Notes: a model not told the origin generated them from the letters alone. A stretch of 64,000 nucleotides of DNA from Candidatus Aerophobetes bacterium Ae_b3b (GCA_005223085.1 NJBP01000002.1:2427-66426), one strand, 5' to 3'; shown: positions 1,932-63,340, counted from the first letter of the stretch. Translations and numbers: made by a program.

Positions 1932-3191
1932 TTACCACAATGCTGGGAGTTTAAAAACAGGTTTTCTTTCAGCCAGATATTTCTCGGTACAAAAAGGAGA
2001 GCCAAAACCGTACTTTTCAGCGCTCTCCATTAACTTATCATATATCTCCGGTCTGAAGATAAGCTTGGTGGGCTTCACCTTATCCTCTATCATACTTCTA
2101 ATTAATGTACCGCTGAATTTTTGTCTTTCCTGGCTATGACCACAGAGACCCGAGTAAGTGACTTCCCCACATATTGGGCAGTACCACCATTCAAGCACCC
2201 GTACTGGCTTAATTTTCAATTTATGTTGGGGGATCTGGTCGAATATGCGGTGAGCATCATAGGAGCCATAGTAGCTACCTACTCCAGCATGGTCTCGACC
2301 AAACATGTGATGAGTGCATCCTAAGTTCGTCCGCAGAATGGCGTGGAAAATAGCCTCTCTTGGCCCTGCGTAGCGCATATCCCACAGAGCAATGGTCACC
2401 ATATGAATATCATCTCTGAAGTACCTTGCCTCACAAAGTCGCTGATGACACAAAACAATGGCCTCATCTATATAATCACCGGTTCGCTTAGGTCCAATTA
2501 TACAGTTTACCAGGATCCCTGTCTTTAGCTTCTCTACGGGAAGTTCTCCATTTGCAGAAAACCAAGCTCCCTTCATTAACCATTCATGCCCACTATGCGG
2601 CACATTCCTGGTTTGATGGGCTACTACTCTTTCCCAACCGTTTTCAACTATTCTCTTTCGCAGTTGCCTTGGCGTATACCAGAATCTATCAAAAGGGGGC
2701 TGGAACTCGGGGGGGTTCACCAAAGCAATCTTCCCCCCTAAGAAAGTATTCTCCAATCCCCTAAGCATTCTTACTCCAGGGTGTCTCTCATCGGTTGTTC
2801 CCAGCACAGCCTCTGCTATTTTCGTTTTATTGAGTCTGAAAATATCTTCCACTTCCATCATCGCCAATGAAGAGGCAGTGTAAGTAAGGAGAATGGAATC
2901 TCCTTTCTTAATTTTCTTTGTTCTGATTTCCTCCTCTTTCACATCGAGAACAATGGGGATAGGCCAGAGCGTGCCGTCAGCCAAGGTCATCCTTTCGCAT
3001 ACCGCATCAACCTCTTCCTTACCCATAAAACCCTCTAGGGGGGTAAAAAAACCGTAGGCGATGTTGATGCATTCTCTCGCACATCGTCCACTGACGGGAA
3101 TTTGCTTCAACTTTCTAATCTTTTCTGTTACTTCAGACTCGGGTATCACCCTTTCTCTAATCTCGCGGTTACCATGCCCCTCATAGTTCAT
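1932..3191 (-). CDS. sat: sulfate adenylyltransferase (ATP sulfurylase), Zn-ribbon-containing type
   Basis: QTRN(VPHSGHE) and GRDHAG motifs, PUA-like N-terminus (FTPLEGFM, LADGTLWPIPI). C-terminal CPICGEV-x8-CGH resembles the Cys3His zinc site described for Thermus Sat. Confidence 0.9.
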   Translation of the reverse strand: MNYEGHGNREIRERVIPESEVTEKIRKLKQIPVSGRCARECINIAYGFFTPLEGFMGKEEVDAVCERMTLADGTLWPIPIVLDVKEEEIRTKKIKKGDSILLTYTASSLAMMEVEDIFRLNKTKIAEAVLGTTDERHPGVRMLRGLENTFLGGKIALVNPPEFQPPFDRFWYTPRQLRKRIVENGWERVVAHQTRNVPHSGHEWLMKGAWFSANGELPVEKLKTGILVNCIIGPKRTGDYIDEAIVLCHQRLCEARYFRDDIHMVTIALWDMRYAGPREAIFHAILRTNLGCTHHMFGRDHAGVGSYYGSYDAHRIFDQIPQHKLKIKPVRVLEWWYCPICGEVTYSGLCGHSQERQKFSGTLIRSMIEDKVKPTKLIFRPEIYDKLMESAEKYGFGSPFCTEKYLAERKPVFKLPALW

Positions 3192-3266
3192 AGTTTAATC
3201 CTTCCCTCAAAAGGGTGTCGTCTTCGTTCAGATCGACTACCCCCTGTTTTTCTCTACTCTTTATGT

Positions 3267-4385: not shown

Positions 4386-5558
4386 CTACGTAGCATCAGG
4401 TCCATATATTCCATTTAACCACTCAAATTTGTCAGGATCTAAGTTCTTTCCTATTAGCCCCTCATGTTCATGTCCGTAGCGGTAAGCTCGATAGATTAGG
4501 TTAGCCTGACCGTAAACCACAAAGGGGCCATAAAAGGGACTGATATACTCCCAAACTATCTCACAATCAGGAGTCGCCTCGAAAATACGACCTCCATGAG
4601 TCTCACATATCAAAGTATTCCCGTTTGACAGACGCTGGGCCCCCCCCATACCAAAGGCATAGAACTCCGACGGAGGGTCATCCTTATATTCCCACTCAAT
4701 TTTATTAGTAGCTGGATTAACCTCCAATACTCTAGAATAGTAATCCAGATCTTGGGTGAAAAAACGATGCGCTCCATTATCAAAGACTAAAATATTCCCA
4801 TTATCCAGCATAGTAGGCTCATGCTGGTGTCCCAATTCCTCGGGACCCCACCTCCAGGTGATCTTTCCCGTAGCTTTATCAATAATACAGATGGTATTAG
4901 TCTGGCGAAATGAGCCTAAGATATTTCCATCTGGTAGCACAGTACAACCATTCATATGAGTCCATTCTCCTCGATACTCCAGAGGGCAAATGACATCTAT
5001 CTCCGGATCTAGGTGTTCGTACGATAGCCACTCCCACACTACTTTACCCTCAGGAGTAACCTCATTAAGGGCATCAGCCCACATAACCCCCCCGCTCAAC
5101 TCTGTACCCGGGATACCACCTTTGACCTTACTTTTAATGTCATCAGGCACAGTTACGTATTTTATAAGCATAGTATTTCCATTTTCCATGCGGTAAAAGT
5201 CGTGATTAAATTGTGGTTCTTCGTACTTCAATACCAGATTATTATCCCAATCTACCTCTATTAAACACACGCCTCTATCTTGCTCATTTTGCTCGCAATC
5301 CTCACCAAAGAGGTAGGCAACCCCCGGTCCCATTATGCCCCCCGACTTAACACCTTGATAAACCAGATTACCATTAGTCAAAAACCGTGCAAAATTTGGT
5401 TTATACGGTTCTGTAGACCAATGGTGCACAATTCTACCCTGCATGTCGATCAGCCACGCATCATTGCCAAACATAGGCGTAAACAAAGTATACCCTTTAT
5501 ATGCCTTTGAAGGAACATAGTGGGTAACCCCCTTCAAACTGGTTCGTGCAATACCCAT
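4386..5558 (-). CDS. arylsulfotransferase (ASST)-like beta-propeller protein, tandem paralog
   Basis: Paralog of 3267-4355 (MGIARTSLKGVTHYV..., LDNGNILVFDNGAHR, NHDF). Start set at MGIART with RBS GGAGG upstream. Confidence 0.5.
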   Translation of the reverse strand: MGIARTSLKGVTHYVPSKAYKGYTLFTPMFGNDAWLIDMQGRIVHHWSTEPYKPNFARFLTNGNLVYQGVKSGGIMGPGVAYLFGEDCEQNEQDRGVCLIEVDWDNNLVLKYEEPQFNHDFYRMENGNTMLIKYVTVPDDIKSKVKGGIPGTELSGGVMWADALNEVTPEGKVVWEWLSYEHLDPEIDVICPLEYRGEWTHMNGCTVLPDGNILGSFRQTNTICIIDKATGKITWRWGPEELGHQHEPTMLDNGNILVFDNGAHRFFTQDLDYYSRVLEVNPATNKIEWEYKDDPPSEFYAFGMGGAQRLSNGNTLICETHGGRIFEATPDCEIVWEYISPFYGPFVVYGQANLIYRAYRYGHEHEGLIGKNLDPDKFEWLNGIYGPDAT

Positions 5559-37736: not shown

Positions 37737-37792
37737 TTAAAACGCTCCCCCCCCCGACTAATCATTATTATACCTTGCCCCTCTCCCCTGTC

Positions 37793-37996
37793 AAGAGAAT
37801 CTCGGGACTCTTCCCCTTCGTCGCTGTATATCGACTTTGGATTGTTTCTGCTCGTCTTCTCGTTTCGGGAAAGACGTGAAACTCGTCGCTCCGCTCCTCA
37901 GACATCACGTCTTTCTTCTTCCTCAACTCGAAGACTCGTTAAGGTGGCTGATATAAGGCTCCTTTGGGGAAAGTCCCTCGATACGCGTATAAATCT
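37793..37996. repeat. MITE-like repeat, family A, copy 1 (~205 bp, imperfect TIRs GGGACTCTTCCCC / GGGGAAAGTCCC)
   Basis: Near-identical to 49453-49814 apart from two indels. Intergenic between yicC and folK. Confidence 0.75.
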
Positions 37997-39233: not shown

Positions 39234-39402
39234 GAGGCTCTCCTTTGGAAAATATTTTCATACTCTAGTATAACGACATTTTCCCATATGTCAATCCTAT
39301 GTACACGCCTAAGTCAAATGATGACGATGACCTAACCCAAATCACACATTTTACAGCCCACCCTTTATCTGTTAGAATAGAGGTAAATACTTAGTGAACC
39401 AC

Positions 39403-39493
39403 GCCATTGCGAGCGCAAGCGAAGCAATCTCAACCTTCATCAGAGATTGCCACGTCGTCCCGAAGACTTTCGGGACTCCTCGCAATGACAGAA
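39403..39493. repeat. MITE-like repeat, family B (gccATTGCGAG...CTCGCAATgac terminal inverted repeats, internal hairpin)
   Basis: Shares terminal and internal segments with the TIRs flanking the GIY-YIG gene (60774-61183) and with 62441-62500. Confidence 0.6.
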
Positions 39494-49452: not shown

Positions 49453-49814
49453 AATATCTCGGGACTCTTCCCCTTCGTCGCTGTATATCGACTTTGGATT
49501 GTTTCTGCTCGTCTTCTCGTTGCCTGCGGCACCTTAACGGCCGGGAAAGACGTGAGGATCTCGAGGGGGGAAACATCCCCCCTCGACGCTACGCTGCTCC
49601 CCCCAATCCAAAAACAGGCAGAGCACGTCGCTCCGCTCCTCAGACAACACGTCTTTCTTTTCCTCAACTATTCTTGAGGGGGAAAATATTCCCCCTCAAC
49701 GCTCGCTTCGCTCACTGCTCCCCCTAAATTCGAAGCCTGCAGAGCTGACTCGTTAAGGTGGCTGATATAAGGCTCCTTCGGGGAAAGTCCCTCGATACGC
49801 GTATAAATATCTTC
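49453..49814. repeat. MITE-like repeat, family A, copy 2 (~360 bp, with two internal palindromic insertions)
   Basis: Same termini as 37793-37996. The extra segments contain near-perfect hairpins (CTCGAGGGGGGAAACATCCCCCCTCGA; CTTGAGGGGGAAAATATTCCCCCTCAA). Confidence 0.75.
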
Positions 49815-54678: not shown

Positions 54679-56147
54679 TCTCTATCCTCCTTGATCAAAG
54701 TAGATTCCTCTAGCTGATAAACAATTTGTAGTTCTACAGTGAGAGAATTTTTCTGCCAGGAAGAGGGAAAAGGAGGAAAAGGTGAGGTATCTTTTATCAG
54801 TTTTTCTGCGGCGCGATTGAGCACTTCGTAACTACAGGGAGACGAAACTTCAGTCTTTATGACTCTGCCACTGGAATTAATCGTGAATCTGACCTTTATT
54901 CTTCCTTTCCATCCGTGTTGCCTGGCAACCGATGGATATTTTTTGTTGGCGTTGATTAACTTTCGAGTCTTTTGTGCATATTCTCTTAGCCAAAGGCTCT
55001 CGGTAAGGCGCTCTGTATCTTCCTTCAGGATCCTGATTTCTTCTCGGTGAAAATCTGGCTCAGTGGTCAGAGGTGAGAATTTCTTTTTTTCTACGATGGG
55101 GGAATAACCACGAGTCCTTGGCTGCACAATCGGATCTAAGGAAGTGGACAAAATTTCGCGCCTAACCTTTTCCTTAGCTTTACCGAGGGATATTCTCGGG
55201 AGCGGATTTGGTTCCCTCAAAGCGGCTTTTTTATAAGGGAAAACTCGTGAAGCTCTTGAGATTATGATTTCGGGTCGTATACCTTCTTCTGTGATTCTTA
55301 CCTGGTGAGGATAGTAGTTCTTTTCACTTTTCCTCATAGGGAAAGCGTTAAGGTTCCTTTCCGTGGGTAAATAAGAAGCTGACATAGGTTCCGATTTCTT
55401 TTCCTCGAAAAGAAGACCCAGGAAAGCCAGGCTTCCCTCCCTTTGTCTTAGCGGTAGAGTCTGGTTTAAACCTACAGGCTCAGTAGCTAAACTCGGGGTA
55501 TGATCGGCCAACCTTTTTTGGCTCAAGTTTTCCTCCCTCGCAAGGTAAACGCTTGCTTCAATTTTCCTGAGGAGAGGAGATTTTTCCACTTGGGTTAAGG
55601 GTGAGAAAGACGAGGAGATGGCGGCTTTGTCAACTGAAAGATTCACTCCCGGGATCTTACTCACCATCTTGGATGTTCCTTCTCTGAGAGGGTTAGATTC
55701 CATGGTCGATTCACGTACCTTTGTTGGTGGGGAAAAAAGGGATAGAGATTTTCTTTTCCTGTGGTTAGATGTCTCTTCGGGAGAAAGGATTCTCTCCTGA
55801 GATCTCAGATTGGAAGAAATAGAGGGCTTTATCGTGCGAATCGAAGATGGCTTGAGTAGCTCCCTATTCTTTCTTTTGAATGCAATGGTTAAGGGAGAGA
55901 TTATGGATTTTCCCGATGATTCCCTCAGGTGATGATTTATTTTAGGCAAAGAGATAATGTAGTCTACTTTTATACTTTTGACATATTTGACAGACTTCGG
56001 GGGAGAAAGGAAAATGGGGGCTGCAAGAAGTCCCAAATGAATGAGTATGGAAATGAGAAGAGAAAATGTCTCTACTTTCAATTTACCCACTCTATTTTTC
56101 TTACCAGTCCCTAATTTCCCCCTTTTTACTTTCTTTCTAGAGGCCAA
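54675..56147 (-). CDS. TonB-family energy transducer (N-terminal TM anchor, Pro/Ser-rich linker, TonB_C domain)
   Basis: TM helix LLISILIHLGLLAAPIFL, low-complexity linker, C-terminal TonB fold (GRIKVRFTINSSGRVIKTEV). Confidence 0.65.
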   Translation of the reverse strand: MASRKKVKRGKLGTGKKNRVGKLKVETFSLLISILIHLGLLAAPIFLSPPKSVKYVKSIKVDYIISLPKINHHLRESSGKSIISPLTIAFKRKNRELLKPSSIRTIKPSISSNLRSQERILSPEETSNHRKRKSLSLFSPPTKVRESTMESNPLREGTSKMVSKIPGVNLSVDKAAISSSFSPLTQVEKSPLLRKIEASVYLAREENLSQKRLADHTPSLATEPVGLNQTLPLRQREGSLAFLGLLFEEKKSEPMSASYLPTERNLNAFPMRKSEKNYYPHQVRITEEGIRPEIIISRASRVFPYKKAALREPNPLPRISLGKAKEKVRREILSTSLDPIVQPRTRGYSPIVEKKKFSPLTTEPDFHREEIRILKEDTERLTESLWLREYAQKTRKLINANKKYPSVARQHGWKGRIKVRFTINSSGRVIKTEVSSPCSYEVLNRAAEKLIKDTSPFPPFPSSWQKNSLTVELQIVYQLEESTLIKEDRD

Positions 56148-58023
56148 TTTTCATCCCCAGATTGATTCTTCTACCCGGCATGGGGTAATCCCTGAACACC
56201 TGGTATGACTCATCCAGTAAATTCTCCCCCGTGGCAAAAACCTCAACTTTCTTGGTTAACCTTTGAGAAAGCCTGGCGTTAAGGAGATTATAGCCCTTTA
56301 ATTTCTGGGTGTTTTCTCTATTGGTATATTGCTCACTTACCTTCTCTGTCTCTATGCGGATGCCTAATCCAAAATCTGTTTCATATTCCAGACTCAAGCC
56401 CATTTTGTATTCAGGTGTATATGCCAGATAATTTCCTTTATACTCCTCACCCTCATCCTTAGCTTGTTGATAGAGATAATTTAATCCGAGAGATAACCTC
56501 GAGGTCAACTGTAATCTGAGCTCCGATTCTATACCCTGGTTATGGGCCTTGTCTACATTGGTAGCCTGCCAGTGCCAGGGTGAAATCTCCACCCAGCTAA
56601 TTAGCTGCTCAGTTTTTCTATCAAACCAACTTATTCTGGCTAGTAGAGGCAGGCTAAACTGATGCTCCAATCCCAACTCATAGCCTCTAGATTTTTCTGG
56701 TTTAAGGTCTTCATTTCCAAATAGACCCATTCCCCATCCCCAATCCTCATACCAGTAAAGTTCATTTACCGTAGGGGGCCTGAAAGCCTGACCATAGGAA
56801 GCACGAAGGCGGGTATTGTGTCCTAAAAGGTAAAGGAGACTCACTCGAGGACTGCATTGGGAAGCGTAGGCGGAGGGATTGTCGTACCTCAGTCCCGGGA
56901 GGAGGACTAAGCGGGAAGAAGGATTTATCTCGTCCTGAAGATAAAGAGAAATCGTATCTAACTTCCGGGGGTCACCAATTCTGGAAGCTCCATCAATGGT
57001 TGTGACTTTGACCCGATCCTGTCTTAGCTCCAAACCTATCGTGGGGAAATGTCTTCCCCAGGGGAGGCTATACTGCATTTGCACACCACTGGCAAGATTT
57101 TCTGTTGTATCTTTCATCGGACCGCCCCAGGCCTCAGGGTCTTGGTAACATATTTCATATTGTTCGATAAAAGTTTTAGTAAGAAGACGAGCTCCTCCTT
57201 TTAAATCCTTGTGGTAGGAAAGATCCAAGAAGTTCCTTTTGTCCTCTTCCCGGGCACCAGGAGTGGGATAAGTGGTGGAGCCGGGAACCCCGCTGTCTCG
57301 ATGAGAGTAACCAGCCAATAAAGAGAACCCCGATGAATCATTGACTTCATAAGTGAGCTTGGCTGTCGCATGTGTCTCGTTACAGCCACTATTTTCTCTG
57401 TCTCCGGCTGAGTCTCCCAGCTTAGCGGTGAGAAAGTATCCAGTCTTGTCTAGCTTTCCACCATGGGTAAGAGTGTATCCACTGGTTTCATAGGTGCCAT
57501 AGGAAGCTCTGATCTCGGTCTGCCTCTTTTCAGGAGCAGGTTTGGTAATGATATTGATAACGCCGCTCAGGGCGTTAGCTCCGTAGAGAGAGGAGAAGGG
57601 ACCTCTAACTACCTCGATCCTTTCGATGTTTTGTACCGGAAGGAAACCCAGATCTATGGTTCCGGAAGCGGCAGGATTTAATTCTCGTCCATCCATTAAA
57701 ACTAAGACTTGATCTGCGGCAGAACCGCGAATATGTGCTGTAGTCAGTGAACCCGGACCCCCGTAAGCGGTCACTCTCATTCCCGCTACATTCTCTAATG
57801 CCTGAGCCACCGTGGAAGCACCGGTTTGTTCGATCTCTTTTTCAGTGATGACCGTGGTGCTCACCGGAACATCCTTTAATAAATGGGGAGTACGGGTAGC
57901 GGTAATAACTATTTTTTCTAGCTCTAGGATGCTTTCTTCTTTATTTTCCTCAGCCTCTGTCCAACCGGAAAAGATAAGCACTAGACCCAAGGTTACCATA
58001 AGTAATCTGCTAAATGAAGACAT
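56137..58023 (-). CDS. TonB-dependent outer-membrane receptor (probable corrinoid transporter BtuB-like)
   Basis: Signal peptide, plug domain with TonB box region, C-terminal beta-barrel ending with aromatic residue. Preceded by a cobalamin riboswitch. Confidence 0.8.
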   Translation of the reverse strand: MSSFSRLLMVTLGLVLIFSGWTEAEENKEESILELEKIVITATRTPHLLKDVPVSTTVITEKEIEQTGASTVAQALENVAGMRVTAYGGPGSLTTAHIRGSAADQVLVLMDGRELNPAASGTIDLGFLPVQNIERIEVVRGPFSSLYGANALSGVINIITKPAPEKRQTEIRASYGTYETSGYTLTHGGKLDKTGYFLTAKLGDSAGDRENSGCNETHATAKLTYEVNDSSGFSLLAGYSHRDSGVPGSTTYPTPGAREEDKRNFLDLSYHKDLKGGARLLTKTFIEQYEICYQDPEAWGGPMKDTTENLASGVQMQYSLPWGRHFPTIGLELRQDRVKVTTIDGASRIGDPRKLDTISLYLQDEINPSSRLVLLPGLRYDNPSAYASQCSPRVSLLYLLGHNTRLRASYGQAFRPPTVNELYWYEDWGWGMGLFGNEDLKPEKSRGYELGLEHQFSLPLLARISWFDRKTEQLISWVEISPWHWQATNVDKAHNQGIESELRLQLTSRLSLGLNYLYQQAKDEGEEYKGNYLAYTPEYKMGLSLEYETDFGLGIRIETEKVSEQYTNRENTQKLKGYNLLNARLSQRLTKKVEVFATGENLLDESYQVFRDYPMPGRRINLGMKIGL

Positions 58024-58224
58024 TGCCTTCTCCCTTCCTTTTATTCTCTGTATCTAACGGTGCTAACCTACATGCCTCATCCTTCTGAGGGTACTCCTCA
58101 GTTATTCAAAAAGCTACTTCCTATAAAAAACCCCAGCCTTCCCGATAAAGAAAGCTGGGGTTCTATTGTTCGACAAAAACCCTCATTACCTTTTATGCGA
58201 AGAAGGAGGGTACACACACATAGG

Positions 58225-58425
58225 CAGGTCTTCTGGCTCCCGGTGACCTCAATCTTGAGTTTTTCTACTCTCCGCGCCTTCCCATCTCACTGGCTCATCA
58301 AAATTACTACATCAAGAGACAGTGGCCTAGTGCGGATTTCGCTACCGGTTACAGCGGCGCAACCGCGAGGGTTTCTCACCCTCTTCCCTTTTAAGCCCAC
58401 ATAGGGCACCTATATACTTCAACCA
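58225..58425 (-). promoter_or_regulatory. cobalamin (B12) riboswitch
   Basis: Minus-strand RNA: GGUGCC...AAAAGGGAA...GGUGAGAAACCC...GCUGUAACCGGUAGCG...GCCACUG (B12 box)...GGGAAGGCG. Lies in the leader of the TonB-dependent receptor. Confidence 0.8.
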
Positions 58426-58509
58426 GGACATTAAAGAGCAGATATTTTATAATACTGTATCAAGAATTTTTGTCAAATTGAACGTTCCAAGATTCCCTCA
58501 TTTAGTGAA

Positions 58510-60712: not shown

Positions 60713-60773
60713 AGCTTTTTCTCCTCCTAGTTAGTTCCCAGTTCATAATTTACAAAATAATATTGTATTTAGC

Positions 60774-61183
60774 CTGTCATTGCGAGGGACAAGGTCCCGA
60801 AGCAATCTCAAGACAGACTCGGAACAGGCTCCGTAATCTCTTATAGTTCCCCATACAAATCCCGCCATTCCTTATTCATACTATTGATTAACTCAATCTT
60901 CCTCTGCCTTGAGCCAGCTTTGATCTGTTTCTCTTTCAAAATGGCACTCTCTATATCCTCAAATACCTCATAATACACAAGTTTAGTAATGTTATATTTT
61001 TTTGTGAATCCATCGACAAGTTTTTCTTTGTGCTCATAAACCCTTCTTTTTAAATTGTTGGTAACACCTGTATAAAGTACAGTGTTCCTTTGGTTGGTCA
61101 TTATGTAAATATAGTACTGTTTATTCATTTATTTATAGATGCCATTGGATTGCTTCGTCGCTTCGCTCCTCGCAATGACAGTA
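60774..61183. mobile_element. small TIR-bounded element carrying a GIY-YIG nuclease gene
   Basis: Left end gtcATTGCGAGggacaaggtcccgaagcaatc, right end (reverse complement) gtcATTGCGAGgagcgaagcgacgaagcaatc. Gives ~35-bp imperfect TIRs enclosing the 95-aa ORF. TIR-only derivatives at 39403-39493 and 62441-62500. Confidence 0.6.
60841..61128 (-). CDS. GIY-YIG nuclease family protein (UPF0213-like)
   Basis: YYIYIMTNQRNTVLYTGVTNNLKRRVYEH: GIY...YIG, Arg, Glu catalytic pattern. Confidence 0.85.
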   Translation of the reverse strand: MNKQYYIYIMTNQRNTVLYTGVTNNLKRRVYEHKEKLVDGFTKKYNITKLVYYEVFEDIESAILKEKQIKAGSRQRKIELINSMNKEWRDLYGEL

Positions 61184-61217: not shown

Positions 61218-62147
61218 TTAACCAGAAAATTTAATCACTGTTTCCAGATATTTTTTAGCTATATCAATGTAACTGGGGACTTCTTTAGCAATTAAACGAA
61301 TATGCTCAGGGGTAGTTCCGCAACATCCTCCAATCATACTTATTCCTGCTTTTATCAAATCAGGAATCAACCTTGCCATCTCTTCTGGAGTTTCCCGATA
61401 AACAGTTTTTCCCTCTTCCAGTTGAGGAGATCCTGCATTTGGTTTTATCCACAAAGGCAGGGTAGTAGCAGAACGTATAATACAGGCTATTTCAACCATA
61501 TTTTCTATTCCAGAGCCACAATTTGCTCCTACTATGTCTGCTCCAGTTTTTTCTAATTCGACCACTGCTTTTCTTGGAGTTACGCCCATCATTGTAGCGT
61601 ATCCCCTTTCTCCTTTGTTAAAAGTCATTGATACCGCTACCGAAAGATTAGAATTCTCTCTAACAGCTTTTAGAGCACACTTGGCCTCATTAAGATCTGT
61701 CATTGTCTCAACGATTACACCATCGGCACCTCCTTCTACAAAAGCCTTAACTTGCTCTGAAAAACAAGAAATCATCTCATCCTCTGCAGTCATGCCTAAA
61801 GGCTTCAGAAATTCACCAGTAGGGCCGATAGAGGCAAATACTAAGGAATCTTCCGCGATCTCCTTAGATAACTCCACACCTTTCCTGTTTATCTCTCTTA
61901 CTTTCGATGAAACACCGGCTTTTTTCAATTTAAAATAATTGCCGCCAAATGTATTGGTCAATATAATATCAGCTCCAGCTTCTCGATAAGCTCTGGCAAT
62001 GGCCCGGATATCATCAGGGCGGTCTAGATTCCACAGCTCTGGACATTCGCCAGGCACAAGTCCTCGCTTTATCATTTCTGTTCCCCAGGCTCCATCCAGA
62101 ACTAGGATTCCCCTGGAAAACAGCCTTTTCTTCCAGTCTCTTGTCAT
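61218..62147 (-). CDS. homocysteine S-methyltransferase domain protein (MetH N-terminal module-like)
   Basis: LDGAWGTEM start of the Hcy-binding barrel, Zn-ligand Cys pair (GANCGSG; GGCCGTTPEHI). Confidence 0.8.
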   Translation of the reverse strand: MTRDWKKRLFSRGILVLDGAWGTEMIKRGLVPGECPELWNLDRPDDIRAIARAYREAGADIILTNTFGGNYFKLKKAGVSSKVREINRKGVELSKEIAEDSLVFASIGPTGEFLKPLGMTAEDEMISCFSEQVKAFVEGGADGVIVETMTDLNEAKCALKAVRENSNLSVAVSMTFNKGERGYATMMGVTPRKAVVELEKTGADIVGANCGSGIENMVEIACIIRSATTLPLWIKPNAGSPQLEEGKTVYRETPEEMARLIPDLIKAGISMIGGCCGTTPEHIRLIAKEVPSYIDIAKKYLETVIKFSG

Positions 62148-62440
62148 CTTTCTTTCCTTTTTATTTTATCTGATTTTCTTCTAACGAGCCTTTAATGTCA
62201 AGACCCATTTTTTGCTGGGCTTTCCCCAAAATTTTTAAAAGGAGAAAGTCCAGGGAAGTATTGGAGCTGATAATATCTTTGTCAAAAAAATCCCAAACCA
62301 CAAATTGGTTTGGGGATTCCTCTAACTTAAAGACCATTCTGCAGATATTATTAACACATTGTTACTTTTTGTCAACCCAATTGTGACGTTAAGGCTTATA
62401 TTCCCTGCAGTCCTTGCATTTCCTGGAAGACAGGCTCGGA

Positions 62441-62528
62441 ACAAGCTCCACAATCCCATAAGATTGCCACGGTTGTTTTCAACAACCTCGCAATGACAGC
62501 GACGGAGGGGAAGAGTCCCGAGATATCC
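62441..62528. repeat. adjacent repeat fragments: family B right end (..CCTCGCAATGACAG) followed by a solo family A terminal repeat (GGGGAAGAGTCCCGAGAT)
   Basis: Sequence identity to the ends of the elements at 60774-61183 / 39403-39493 and to the left TIR of 37793 / 49453 (inverted). Confidence 0.6.
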
Positions 62529-62557
62529 TTGACAAATCTGTCTTGATAACGTAAATT
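62529..62557 (+). promoter_or_regulatory. sigma70-type promoter (TTGACA-17-TAAATT) driving riboswitch-cobU-cobT
   Basis: Consensus -35 and good -10 with 17-bp spacer, about 15 nt before the riboswitch. Confidence 0.55.
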
Positions 62558-62569
62558 GGAGACGATTTG

Positions 62570-62730
62570 AAAATTAGGTTACGTATGAGATGAGCAGATG
62601 AAGGGAATTGGGTGAAAATCCCAAGCAGTGGCGCTGCTGTAATGGGAAACGAAACCTCACAAACCACTGGAACGTGAAGTTCTGGGAAGGGAGGGAGTAG
62701 GCTGTCCCTAAGCCAGAAGACCTATCTGCT
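62570..62730 (+). promoter_or_regulatory. cobalamin (B12) riboswitch
   Basis: GAAGGGAAUUGGGUGAAAAUCCCAAGCAGUGGCGCUGCUGUAAUGGGAAACGAAACCUCACAAACCACUGGAAC...GGGAAGGGAGG: GGUGAAAAUCC, GCUGUAA, B12-box-like CCACUGG. Confidence 0.8.
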
Positions 62731-62776
62731 TTTCTAGCCATTCTTCCTTTGCGCATCACAAAGGAGGTGTTTTTTT

Positions 62777-63340
62777 ATGAAAGTTGAATTAGGAGGAGAA
62801 TCTCTCCACAAAATGGCTAAACTTATCTTTATTACTGGAGGGGCCAGGAGCGGGAAAAGCAGATTTGCCGTAAAACTGGCTAAACAGTTGGCCAGTAAGG
62901 TGACCTTTGTAGCTACAGCTATGGCAAAGGACGAAGAAATGCGGGAGCGCATCCGACGGCATCAAAAGGATCGTCCTAGCCATTGGAGATTGGTGGAGGA
63001 AGGAAAAAACCTCTCTCTCGTTCTCTCCCAGCTTGATGCTTCCTGCGAGCTGGTGATAATAGACTGCTTGAGTTTTCTCATCTCCAACCTTCTTCTCGAT
63101 AATACCGAGGAAGATACTATCATCAAACAGGTGAGGGAGATAGCTGACGAGGTAATTCATCTTCGGCCTACTTTCATCGTGGTCTCTAATGAGGTAGGTT
63201 ATGGAGTGGTACCTCCTACCAGATTAGGCCGGAGGTTCAGAGATATCTGTGGTCAAGCTAATCAAATAATGGCTGAGCAAGCCCAGGAAGTCTATTTTAT
63301 GATATCAGGAATTCCCATGAGGATAAAGAGGAACCTATAA
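62777..63340 (+). CDS. cobU: adenosylcobinamide kinase / adenosylcobinamide-phosphate guanylyltransferase
   Basis: P-loop ITGGARSGKSRFA and CobU/CobP family length. Confidence 0.85.
   Translation: MKVELGGESLHKMAKLIFITGGARSGKSRFAVKLAKQLASKVTFVATAMAKDEEMRERIRRHQKDRPSHWRLVEEGKNLSLVLSQLDASCELVIIDCLSFLISNLLLDNTEEDTIIKQVREIADEVIHLRPTFIVVSNEVGYGVVPPTRLGRRFRDICGQANQIMAEQAQEVYFMISGIPMRIKRNL

Follow-up and report, generated by a model that had tools for sequence, protein, structure and literature searches.

The subject of this analysis is a small gene and the short repeats around it in a stretch of 64,000 nucleotides (nt) of DNA from Candidatus Aerophobetes bacterium Ae_b3b, referred to here as the window. 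As judged from sequence, the locus is very probably an ssn cassette, in which a GIY-YIG nuclease gene of the Ssn family (60841-61128, minus strand) is placed between two inverted cognate hairpins of the Ssn-related motif (SRM) type, with solo, paired and arrayed copies of the hairpin dispersed elsewhere. The Ssn system has been described from Neisseria by Chenal et al. (Nat Commun 2025, PMC11893778). A first-pass annotation of the window had proposed a GIY-YIG gene bracketed by inverted repeat copies, with gene-less derivatives at other sites. This core reading is right in outline, and the system was already published in 2025. What appears to be new here is the ATTGCGAG-type repeat class, which the published SRM search string does not match.

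A GIY-YIG gene and its oriented hairpins

The gene encodes a protein of 95 amino acids (aa) with a single Pfam match, to the GIY-YIG domain (PF01541, E=2.6e-16, residues 4-77); Pfam gives no domain beyond GIY-YIG, and there is no DNA-binding extension. N. meningitidis SsnA is a single-domain GIY-YIG protein of 94 aa, classified as cd10448 (PMC11893778). When the 95-aa protein was compared by tblastn with an N. gonorrhoeae chromosome (filed as a plasmid in PLSDB), a locus was found at E=4e-23 that encodes a 94-aa protein with Y6, Y17 and E64 and has nine exact copies of the Neisseria hairpin repeat, NTS, in 3.3 kb. Because of the length of its product, these three residues and the nine flanking NTS repeats, this locus is identified as ssnA. 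A BLASTP alignment of the Aerophobetes protein with N. gonorrhoeae SsnA covers 92 aa without a gap at 47% identity (E=1e-33), and Y8, Y19 and E66 align with the catalytic Y6, Y17 and E64 of SsnA. The protein therefore has the size and single GIY-YIG domain of the family (about 94 aa), the catalytic Tyr/Tyr/Glu set and a similarity to Neisseria SsnA beyond E<1e-10, the homology threshold used for Ssn in the original paper (PMC11893778). A match to the UPF0213 structure 1ZG2 is weak (E=1.3e-3) and shows merely that the protein is not a close UPF0213 member. NCBIfam gives only sub-threshold matches for the protein, and PADLOC gives no match to a defence-system model.

The repeat was searched for in the window with the string ATTGCGAG-N(3-33)-GCAATC, and 100 dinucleotide-preserving shuffles were searched in the same way. 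Five matches were found where 0.00 are expected, at 39406-39429 (+), 39445-39486 (-), 60779-60807 (+), 61148-61176 (-) and 62462-62494 (-); none of the 100 shuffles gives even one. A repeat finder places two inverted arms around the gene, at 60774-60807 and 61148-61181, which are 34 nt long and 79% complementary and are the sole inverted pair around the open reading frame (ORF). A covariance model of the repeat, built on 33 copies, returns the same five copies from the 64 kb at E<=3e-5 and no other strong match. The gene and the five copies are as follows.

60841-61128, minus strand: ssn-like gene, single-domain GIY-YIG nuclease of the Ssn family; 95 aa, PF01541, homologous to SsnA
61146-61180, minus strand: upstream SRM hairpin of the ATTGCGAG class, TGTC-ATTGC-GA-GGAGCGAAGCGAC-GAA-GCAAT-CCA; inverted-repeat arm; best covariance-model match in the window (59.7 bits, E=4e-14)
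60775-60809, plus strand: downstream SRM hairpin, TGTC-ATTGC-GA-GGGACAAGGTCCC-GAA-GCAAT-CTC; inverted-repeat arm; covariance model 53.6 bits, E=1.9e-12; two-tier fold, z=-2.8
39402-39432, plus strand: solo SRM unit, left half of a gene-less head-to-head pair; pattern match, covariance model E=2.8e-5, read directly
39443-39490, minus strand: solo SRM unit that forms the right half of the gene-less pair; its upper hairpin (GTCCCGAA/TTCGGGAC) is long; pattern match, covariance model E=2e-6, fold z=-3.55
62460-62498, minus strand: single complete SRM unit between the operon that holds the gene and a divergent cobalamin riboswitch and cobU; pattern match, covariance model E=3.1e-6, fold z=-3.16

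The upstream hairpin stops 17 nt short of the ATG of the nuclease gene, and its motif strand is the sense strand of the gene. The downstream hairpin is inverted relative to the upstream one, so that both TGTC ends face outward. The unit at 39402-39432 has a degenerate 5' tag, CGCC in place of TGTC. The gene-less element that had been annotated at 39403-39493 is found here as the head-to-head pair at 39402-39490. A 'partial copy' had been annotated at 62441-62500; the repeat is indeed there, but it is not partial, as a complete unit (62460-62498) stands beside a unit of a second small repeat (62429-62457).

Each copy of the repeat is self-complementary. The consensus of 246 copies, from the window and from 80 related loci, reads 5'-TGTC-ATTGC-GA-G-(variable)-C-G-N-R-GCAAT-C-(T/C)-C-3'. 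The GTC tag and the C after the stem are outside the search pattern and are conserved at 98% (G-3), 98% (T-2), 100% (C-1) and 98% (C+1), and conservation ends beyond -4 and +3. The unpaired 5' (T)GTC tag is followed by a lower stem of 5 bp (ATTGC/GCAAT), a small internal loop in which GA lies opposite GNR, and an upper hairpin of nearly any sequence and length that is closed by a G:C pair. In one subclass the upper hairpin begins with tandem G.A/A.G mismatches, and GNA triloops such as GCGAAGC are common. In the covariance-model alignment the upper helix has 75 double-sided changes against 14.7 in shuffles, and none of 500 shuffles reaches 75. The lower stem is near-invariant in the best matches; elsewhere it has compensated variants (ATCGC/GCGAT ten times, ACTGC/GCAGT six times and GTTGC/GCAAC six times). 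Both stems are thus supported by compensatory changes. Mismatches on the motif strand are G.A or A.G in 164 cases and C.T or T.C in 5, and the motif strand is more stable than its complement in 165 of 182 unique copies, an asymmetry that fits the folding of one specific strand. Each arm is therefore a self-contained, oriented two-tier hairpin. The arms had been described as terminal inverted repeats; the inverted pair stands (34 nt, 79%), while a plain terminal inverted repeat does not, as the arms are oriented hairpins in which both stems covary.

The association between the gene and the repeat was examined in 80 loci from many phyla that contain homologous genes (660 kb; counts by gene use 75 genes). 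At up to 150 bp from the gene the motif has a density of about 5 per kb, and beyond 500 bp one of 0.07-0.1 per kb, an enrichment of about 50-fold. Upstream, the copy closest to the gene is on the plus strand in 39 cases and on the minus strand in 7; downstream, it is on the minus strand in 33 and on the plus strand in 15. With the strict pattern, one copy or more lies within 120 bp of 58 of the 75 genes, and 28 of the 75 show the canonical outward-facing arrangement; what look like exceptions mostly have variant motifs, including an NTS-like TGTCATTCCCGCGAAAGCGGGAA in a Bacteroidota locus. The covariance model has 347 matches in the 660 kb. In the usual layout a plus copy ends 10-30 nt before the start codon and a minus copy starts a few nt from the stop, which turns both TGTC ends outward. 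The link between the repeat and homologous genes is tight and directional in many phyla, which bears out the earlier proposal that the GIY-YIG protein is the partner of the repeat.

The ATTGCGAG-type repeat is also borne by at least 120 putative viral contigs from IMG/VR (L129-L248; the author's locus handles are prefixed L throughout), with 186 copies in arrays of up to 15. Of these copies 90% also have the conserved CGNR, which was not specified in the search. No Ssn homolog was found in the repeat-bearing viral contigs (0 of 120, in 1.05 Mb).

The 95-aa protein has more than 8,000 relatives in a word-indexed protein search and 5,123 clusters at 50% identity with E<=1e-10. Proteins that are 60-83% identical come from Dehalococcoidia, Syntrophales, Nostoc, Kuenenia, Jettenia, Melioribacter, Nitrospirota, Elusimicrobiota, Omnitrophota and several lineages of the candidate phyla radiation (CPR). 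The ratio of nonsynonymous to synonymous change (dN/dS) between the ssn-like gene and its homologs is 0.05-0.13 with synonymous sites saturated, and the low ratio indicates that the gene is kept by strong purifying selection. Recent transfer across phyla was considered, as some proteins are 80-89% identical between phyla, and was rejected; with synonymous sites saturated, the similarity is a mark of purifying selection and gives no date for a transfer. Many homologs in the databases are annotated with 110-170 aa, and in several loci (e.g. L009-L012) the ORF continues into the flanking hairpin repeat. Gene-calling artefacts would explain at least some of these lengths, and because of such run-on the lengths and 'extra domains' in the family are to be treated cautiously.

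Likeness to the Ssn/SRM system

Studies done by Chenal et al. showed that SsnA binds the NTS repeat (CGTCATTCCCGCGMAVGCGGGAATCYRG) solely as single-stranded DNA, that it is inactive on duplex DNA, RNA and the reverse strand, and that it cuts a few nucleotides upstream of the repeat (PMC11893778). The 3 nt before the palindrome are the most important for cutting and the C directly after it is the most important for binding. At least one SRM was found near 71% of Ssn homologs and SRMs on both sides of 42%, and the system reduces transformation by repeat-bearing DNA. The authors have likened the repeat-gene-repeat layout to an insertion sequence and to REP/RAYT, the pairing of repetitive extragenic palindromic (REP) sequences with RAYT proteins (PMC11893778).

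The repeats of the window have the features of SRMs: they are oriented hairpins with an unpaired xGTC tag and a C just 3' of the palindrome, and they often flank ssn homologs on both sides. The conserved G-3/T-2/C-1 and C+1 are the very positions that were found critical for cutting and binding (PMC11893778). The proteins are alike in size, in their single domain and in the catalytic residues, as described above. The repeats share a 5' (C/T)GTC tag, a stem ATT...AAT and an invariant C after the stem, and in both systems there are many extra dispersed copies, often clustered. The two differ in that the repeat here reads TGTC-ATTGC-GA-(free upper hairpin)-GNR-GCAAT-CTC, whereas NTS reads CGTC-ATTCCCGCG-MAV-GCGGGAAT-CYRG. 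The hosts here are uncultivated anaerobes, CPR and anammox bacteria and cyanobacteria, whereas symbionts and pathogens are stressed in the paper.

Several observations weigh against the assignment to Ssn/SRM. The published SRM string, HGTCWYN(0-2)YYVSBRHN(0-5)WNVSBRGN(0-2)RNCYNB, has 0 matches in the window and thus matches 0 of the 5 copies; its 9 matches in the 80 loci are all to other repeat types. This string is a search tool derived from 29 genomes and not a definition, and its failure to match marks a distinct repeat class, outside what the published census would count. The architecture also differs: the hairpin here has a lower stem of 5 bp, an internal loop and an upper part without constraint, and NTS has a continuous, sequence-specific stem of 8-9 bp, so that specificity and cut position may differ as well. 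The repeats around N. gonorrhoeae ssnA are not oriented as the strict outward-facing pair found here. Finally, the role in Neisseria is to modulate natural transformation, and this may not carry over to a subsurface Aerophobetes bacterium that need not be competent.

Similar layouts are known from REP, BIME and REPIN sequences with RAYT (TnpA_REP). These too are short hairpins with an unpaired 5' tetranucleotide tag that occur as inverted pairs and mosaic arrays; they too have a small single-copy nuclease gene between two inverted repeats, arrays that vary between strains and gene-less inverted pairs elsewhere. The enzyme here, however, is a hydrolytic GIY-YIG protein and not an HUH/Y1 transposase, and the tag is TGTC and not GTAG. 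REPs have been classed into GTAG-tagged and CGTC/TGTC-tagged superfamilies, the latter described without a dedicated transposase (Di Nocera et al. 2013, PMC3733652). The CGTC-tagged superfamily, which includes Neisseria dRS3 and Rickettsia RPE-4/6, resembles the repeats of the window in its unpaired CGTC/TGTC tag, a stem that starts with A-T and then T-A, a short 3' tail and a predominance of head-to-head dimers. It differs in having continuous stems of 8-9 bp, loops of 4-5 nt and a CCA tail, where the stem here is interrupted, the upper part variable and the tail CTC (PMC3733652). In the 'peel and paste' transposition of IS200/IS605 elements (TnpA), imperfect single-stranded DNA hairpins are likewise recognised and cleaved a short distance away, but there both end hairpins are on the same strand and the Y1 intermediates are covalent, whereas the hairpins here are inverted and the enzyme is hydrolytic. 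Classical insertion sequences and MITEs, the miniature transposable elements with inverted repeats, differ by their target-site duplication, which is absent from the window and from 27 canonical cassettes.

How would the nuclease act on these repeats? From its homology with the enzymes characterised in Neisseria and Wolbachia (PMC11893778), the protein is predicted to bind the motif strand only when this strand is single-stranded and folded, and no action would be expected on duplex DNA, RNA or the complementary strand. The DNA would be hydrolysed a few nt 5' of the TGTC tag; with the TGTC ends outward, both cuts would lie a little beyond the ends of the cassette, on the minus strand near 61183 and on the plus strand near 60772. 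The substrate in vivo may be repeat-bearing single-stranded DNA, such as incoming transforming or conjugating DNA or intermediates of replication or repair, which would be shortened by cutting, and recombination around repeat-flanked genes may be modulated as a result. The repeats themselves would turn over by recombination and slippage between their conserved halves.

The published pattern misses a widespread class of SRMs with a short base and a free upper hairpin, and censuses based on it therefore undercount the Ssn system in Chloroflexota, CPR, anammox bacteria, cyanobacteria and others. To our knowledge, Ssn/SRM is the sole family of site-specific nucleases that cut single-stranded DNA exclusively. 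The protein and hairpins described here are a candidate enzyme/site pair, probably with a new specificity, that could serve as a source of tools for single-stranded DNA. The association with Ssn also supplies a partner enzyme for TGTC/CGTC-tagged REP-like repeats, which have long been described without one.

Insertion site, mobility and alternative explanations

The cassette lies within an operon between two cobalamin riboswitches. The operon comprises a 58-aa ORF, a homocysteine S-methyltransferase-domain (Hcy) gene, the ssn-like gene where present, a pterin-binding gene and a B12-binding radical SAM gene; the last four are all on the minus strand. The Hcy and pterin-binding domains of the flanking genes are as first annotated. 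The operon and riboswitches are a split MetH-like set in a B12-centred neighbourhood, and a promoter search found no internal promoter above chance in the cassette.

61218-62147, minus strand: Hcy gene, PF02574
59912-60712, minus strand: pterin-binding gene, PF00809, followed by the B12-binding radical SAM gene
58206-58428, minus strand: cobalamin riboswitch, 105.9 bits; precedes the TonB-dependent receptor gene 56137-58023
62559-62743, plus strand: cobalamin riboswitch, 89.5 bits; precedes cobU 62777-63340

A scan of metagenomes with the Hcy-domain protein gave 31 related loci, in which the orthologous region was compared. Besides the window, L088, L090, L096 and L099 have the cassette. In strains with a 91-96% identical Hcy protein the nuclease gene is absent and the Hcy and pterin genes are adjacent, not fused, with a spacer of about 70-75 bp; each gene in these empty alleles comes with a stop codon or ribosome-binding site of its own. 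The five outgroup loci (Hcy 74-79% identical) are likewise empty, and the spacer across all empty alleles is about 25-190 bp. Presence and absence among close strains together with absence in the outgroups indicates that the cassette was gained within a sublineage. It had been suggested that the insertion split a contiguous Hcy-pterin unit. The genes are already separate in relatives without the cassette, so that it was gained in a spacer that was already there, and no fused gene was split. Compared with the empty allele, the filled one has an additional 46 nt left and 30 nt right of the hairpins, outside the shared cassette, and no clean junction or target site can be read; the junction therefore looks like a recombinational replacement and not like a clean insertion. 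In L106 the cassette has been deleted between GAGGAG microhomologies, with TGTCATTG remaining.

The same spacer holds an unrelated insertion in L102 (about 3040-3200; Hcy 79% identical), where it is about 120 bp longer than usual and includes GTAG-tagged REP-like palindromes (GTAGCGCGGGGGCTTGTCCCCCG...). The Hcy-pterin spacer is a recurrent landing place for hairpin repeats.

Mobility of the cassette is plausible. Nucleotide similarity to cassettes of other genomes begins no more than 3 nt from the outer TGTC in 13 loci and never goes further. One Paceibacterota contig has two paralogous cassettes 4.9 kb apart that are about 92% identical from TGTC to GACA and divergent outside, and their upper hairpins are swapped. 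Genes that are 87-89% identical occur in unrelated contexts, with only the hairpin-to-hairpin unit in common. A target-site duplication was looked for at four offsets in 27 canonical cassettes (355-541 bp), and no consistent repeat of 3-6 nt was found there, nor was one found in the window. The repeats vary between strains as well. At the two other repeat sites of the window and downstream of the ssn gene the number of units differs, and at the two other sites some strains have deletions that join the conserved halves of adjacent units. About five units are present in a related strain, L119, at the site of the gene-less pair (39402-39490), and in the strain alignment other strains have, at the site of 62460-62498, two units in tandem, the other unit singly or a deletion at a microhomology. 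Variation is thus demonstrably produced by recombination between units.

The authors of the Ssn paper raised, in its Discussion, the question of an insertion sequence, and the first-pass annotation likewise saw an autonomous element with MITEs. On this question there is now indirect population evidence: a gain within a sublineage, sharp hairpin ends and paralogous copies, yet no target duplications. That the cassette is a selfish element which moves as a unit by means of its own nuclease, with the gene-less pairs as REPIN- or MITE-like passengers, is possible but not probable. It is compatible with a single-strand nuclease and is a rival only as to the purpose of the cassette. The presence of the cassette in the window and four related loci and its absence from the 91-96% strains and all the 74-79% outgroups fit a selfish element, as do the sharp ends at the outer TGTC, the Paceibacterota paralogs that are alike within the hairpins only, the near-identical proteins in unrelated contexts, the gene-less pair at 39402-39490 with the outward-facing geometry of the cassette, and the minimal size of the cassette (355-380 bp). 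However, neither a target-site duplication in the 27 cassettes nor a clean filled/empty junction was found, and the observed losses and array changes are all microhomology or unit-to-unit deletions. GIY-YIG enzymes hydrolyse DNA and form no covalent intermediate, and are therefore incapable of strand transfer alone. Either strand, moreover, presents just one of the flanking hairpins in an orientation that could be cleaved, and saturated synonymous sites with a low dN/dS resemble a long-retained, domesticated gene, as seen for RAYTs. Propagation of the cassette and the gene-less pairs by their own nuclease, in the manner of REPIN/RAYT, accordingly seems an outside prospect of some substance. 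It is rather doubtful that the hairpin-ssn-hairpin cassette (about 360-410 bp) is a currently or recently active mobile element of an undemonstrated kind, in which a GIY-YIG nuclease acting on oriented hairpins in single-stranded DNA would work with host repair without target duplication, the gene-less pairs being REPIN-like passengers. If it is mobile in this way, the free upper hairpin may be a neutral 'cap' that is shuffled between copies by recombination.

The nuclease had also been thought to be a mobilising protein like a homing endonuclease. A free-standing enzyme of this type would cut alleles that lack the cassette, for example at gene-less hairpin pairs, and the gene would be copied in by homologous repair. 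GIY-YIG homing endonucleases exist, the gene-less pairs resemble the occupied cassette in geometry and strains are polymorphic for its presence, but homing is very unlikely here: the protein scores 18.9 bits with the group I intron endonuclease model TIGR01453, which has a cut-off of 56, and at 95 aa it has no C-terminal DNA-binding domain of the I-TevI or Seg type; its characterised relatives do not cut duplex DNA, the empty alleles at the locus contain no hairpin pair that could be a homing site, and the homology arms would be merely about 12 conserved nt per side. It is just as hard to credit that the hairpins work at the level of RNA, terminating, stabilising or attenuating the transcript of the met-like operon, and that the GIY-YIG gene is incidental. 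The hairpins are stable, and the cassette lies inside the operon in the orientation of its neighbours with no promoter of its own above chance; yet the flanking copies are inverted, so that in the mRNA one would be read as the motif strand and the other as its complement, and the unpaired tag and G.A-rich asymmetry follow the motif strand whatever the direction of transcription. There is neither a U-tract nor an Rfam family, RNA is not bound by SsnA, and the repeats go with the nuclease gene in different phyla and gene contexts alike. Whether the repeats might be fragments of a tRNA or another conserved RNA was checked by a tRNA scan and by Rfam at gathering and permissive thresholds; at the repeat sites no tRNA and nothing credible was found, and this origin is rejected. 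Short palindromes are common in intergenic DNA, and an inverted repeat could arise by chance or belong to a generic REP family unrelated to the gene. The chance of this is negligible, as the gapped pattern has no match in any of the 100 shuffles and the enrichment beside homologous genes in the 80 loci has a fixed orientation; with the 347 covariance-model matches these results rule it out.

Neighbouring repeats and related loci

Beside the SRM units of the window there is a second small repeat, GACAGRCTCGGAACARGCTCCRYAATCYC, with two units.

60812-60840, plus strand: GACAGRCTCGGAACARGCTCCRYAATCYC unit between the stop codon of the ssn-like gene and the downstream hairpin; second copy at 62429-62457; weak terminator-like stem on the minus strand
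62429-62457, plus strand: second GACAGRCTCGGAACARGCTCCRYAATCYC copy, abutting the SRM unit 62460-62498; read directly

The GACAGRCTCGGAACARGCTCCRYAATCYC repeat always adjoins the GCAATCYC end of an SRM unit. It has a 3' GCAATCTC end in common with the SRM and is without the 5' half of the lower stem. Its copy number varies between strains, with extra units 3' of the ssn stop in L004-L007 and L088, and the repeat is also seen in L119; the copy at 62429-62457 is kept in the strain variants and is gone in the L096 deletion allele.

Another hairpin repeat family (ACGTGWTGTCTGAGGAGCGGAGCGACG...) gives weak covariance-model matches (E of about 0.01-0.02) at 37875-37906 and 49618-49648, both on the minus strand. 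These were rejected as SRM copies, since they have only TGTC and the GAGGAGCGGAGCGACG core in common with them and belong to a different family. The ACGTGWTGTCTGAGGAGCGGAGCGACG family may be a distant relative of the SRM or may share a mini-hairpin module with it. A repeat of about 38 nt, CAGCGACGRAGGGGAAGAGTCCCGAGATWYCYTTGACA, is found at 37786-37824 (minus strand) and 62499-62537 (plus strand) and has a consensus -35 box at its end. Near 37.8 kb it is followed by a 17-nt spacer and TATAAT, and at 62.5 kb it lies immediately upstream of the cobU riboswitch. The repeat seems to bear a promoter and is probably the 'family A' of the first-pass annotation.

In a Melioribacter genome bin (L022 and L023, about 4925-5420 in each) an identical hairpin-ssn-hairpin cassette lies inside a larger duplicated unit in two genomic contexts. 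The larger unit is bounded by a perfect 18-bp inverted repeat (CAATGCTGTCAGGTTAAG / CTTAACCTGACAGCATTG), and a second, larger element may have carried the cassette. On the Planktothrix agardhii plasmid NZ_LR882964.1 (18847-19131; L128) a 66% identical ssn-like gene is found in a defence-island context, with a type IIL MmeI restriction-modification gene on one side and the DISARM helicase gene drmA on the other.

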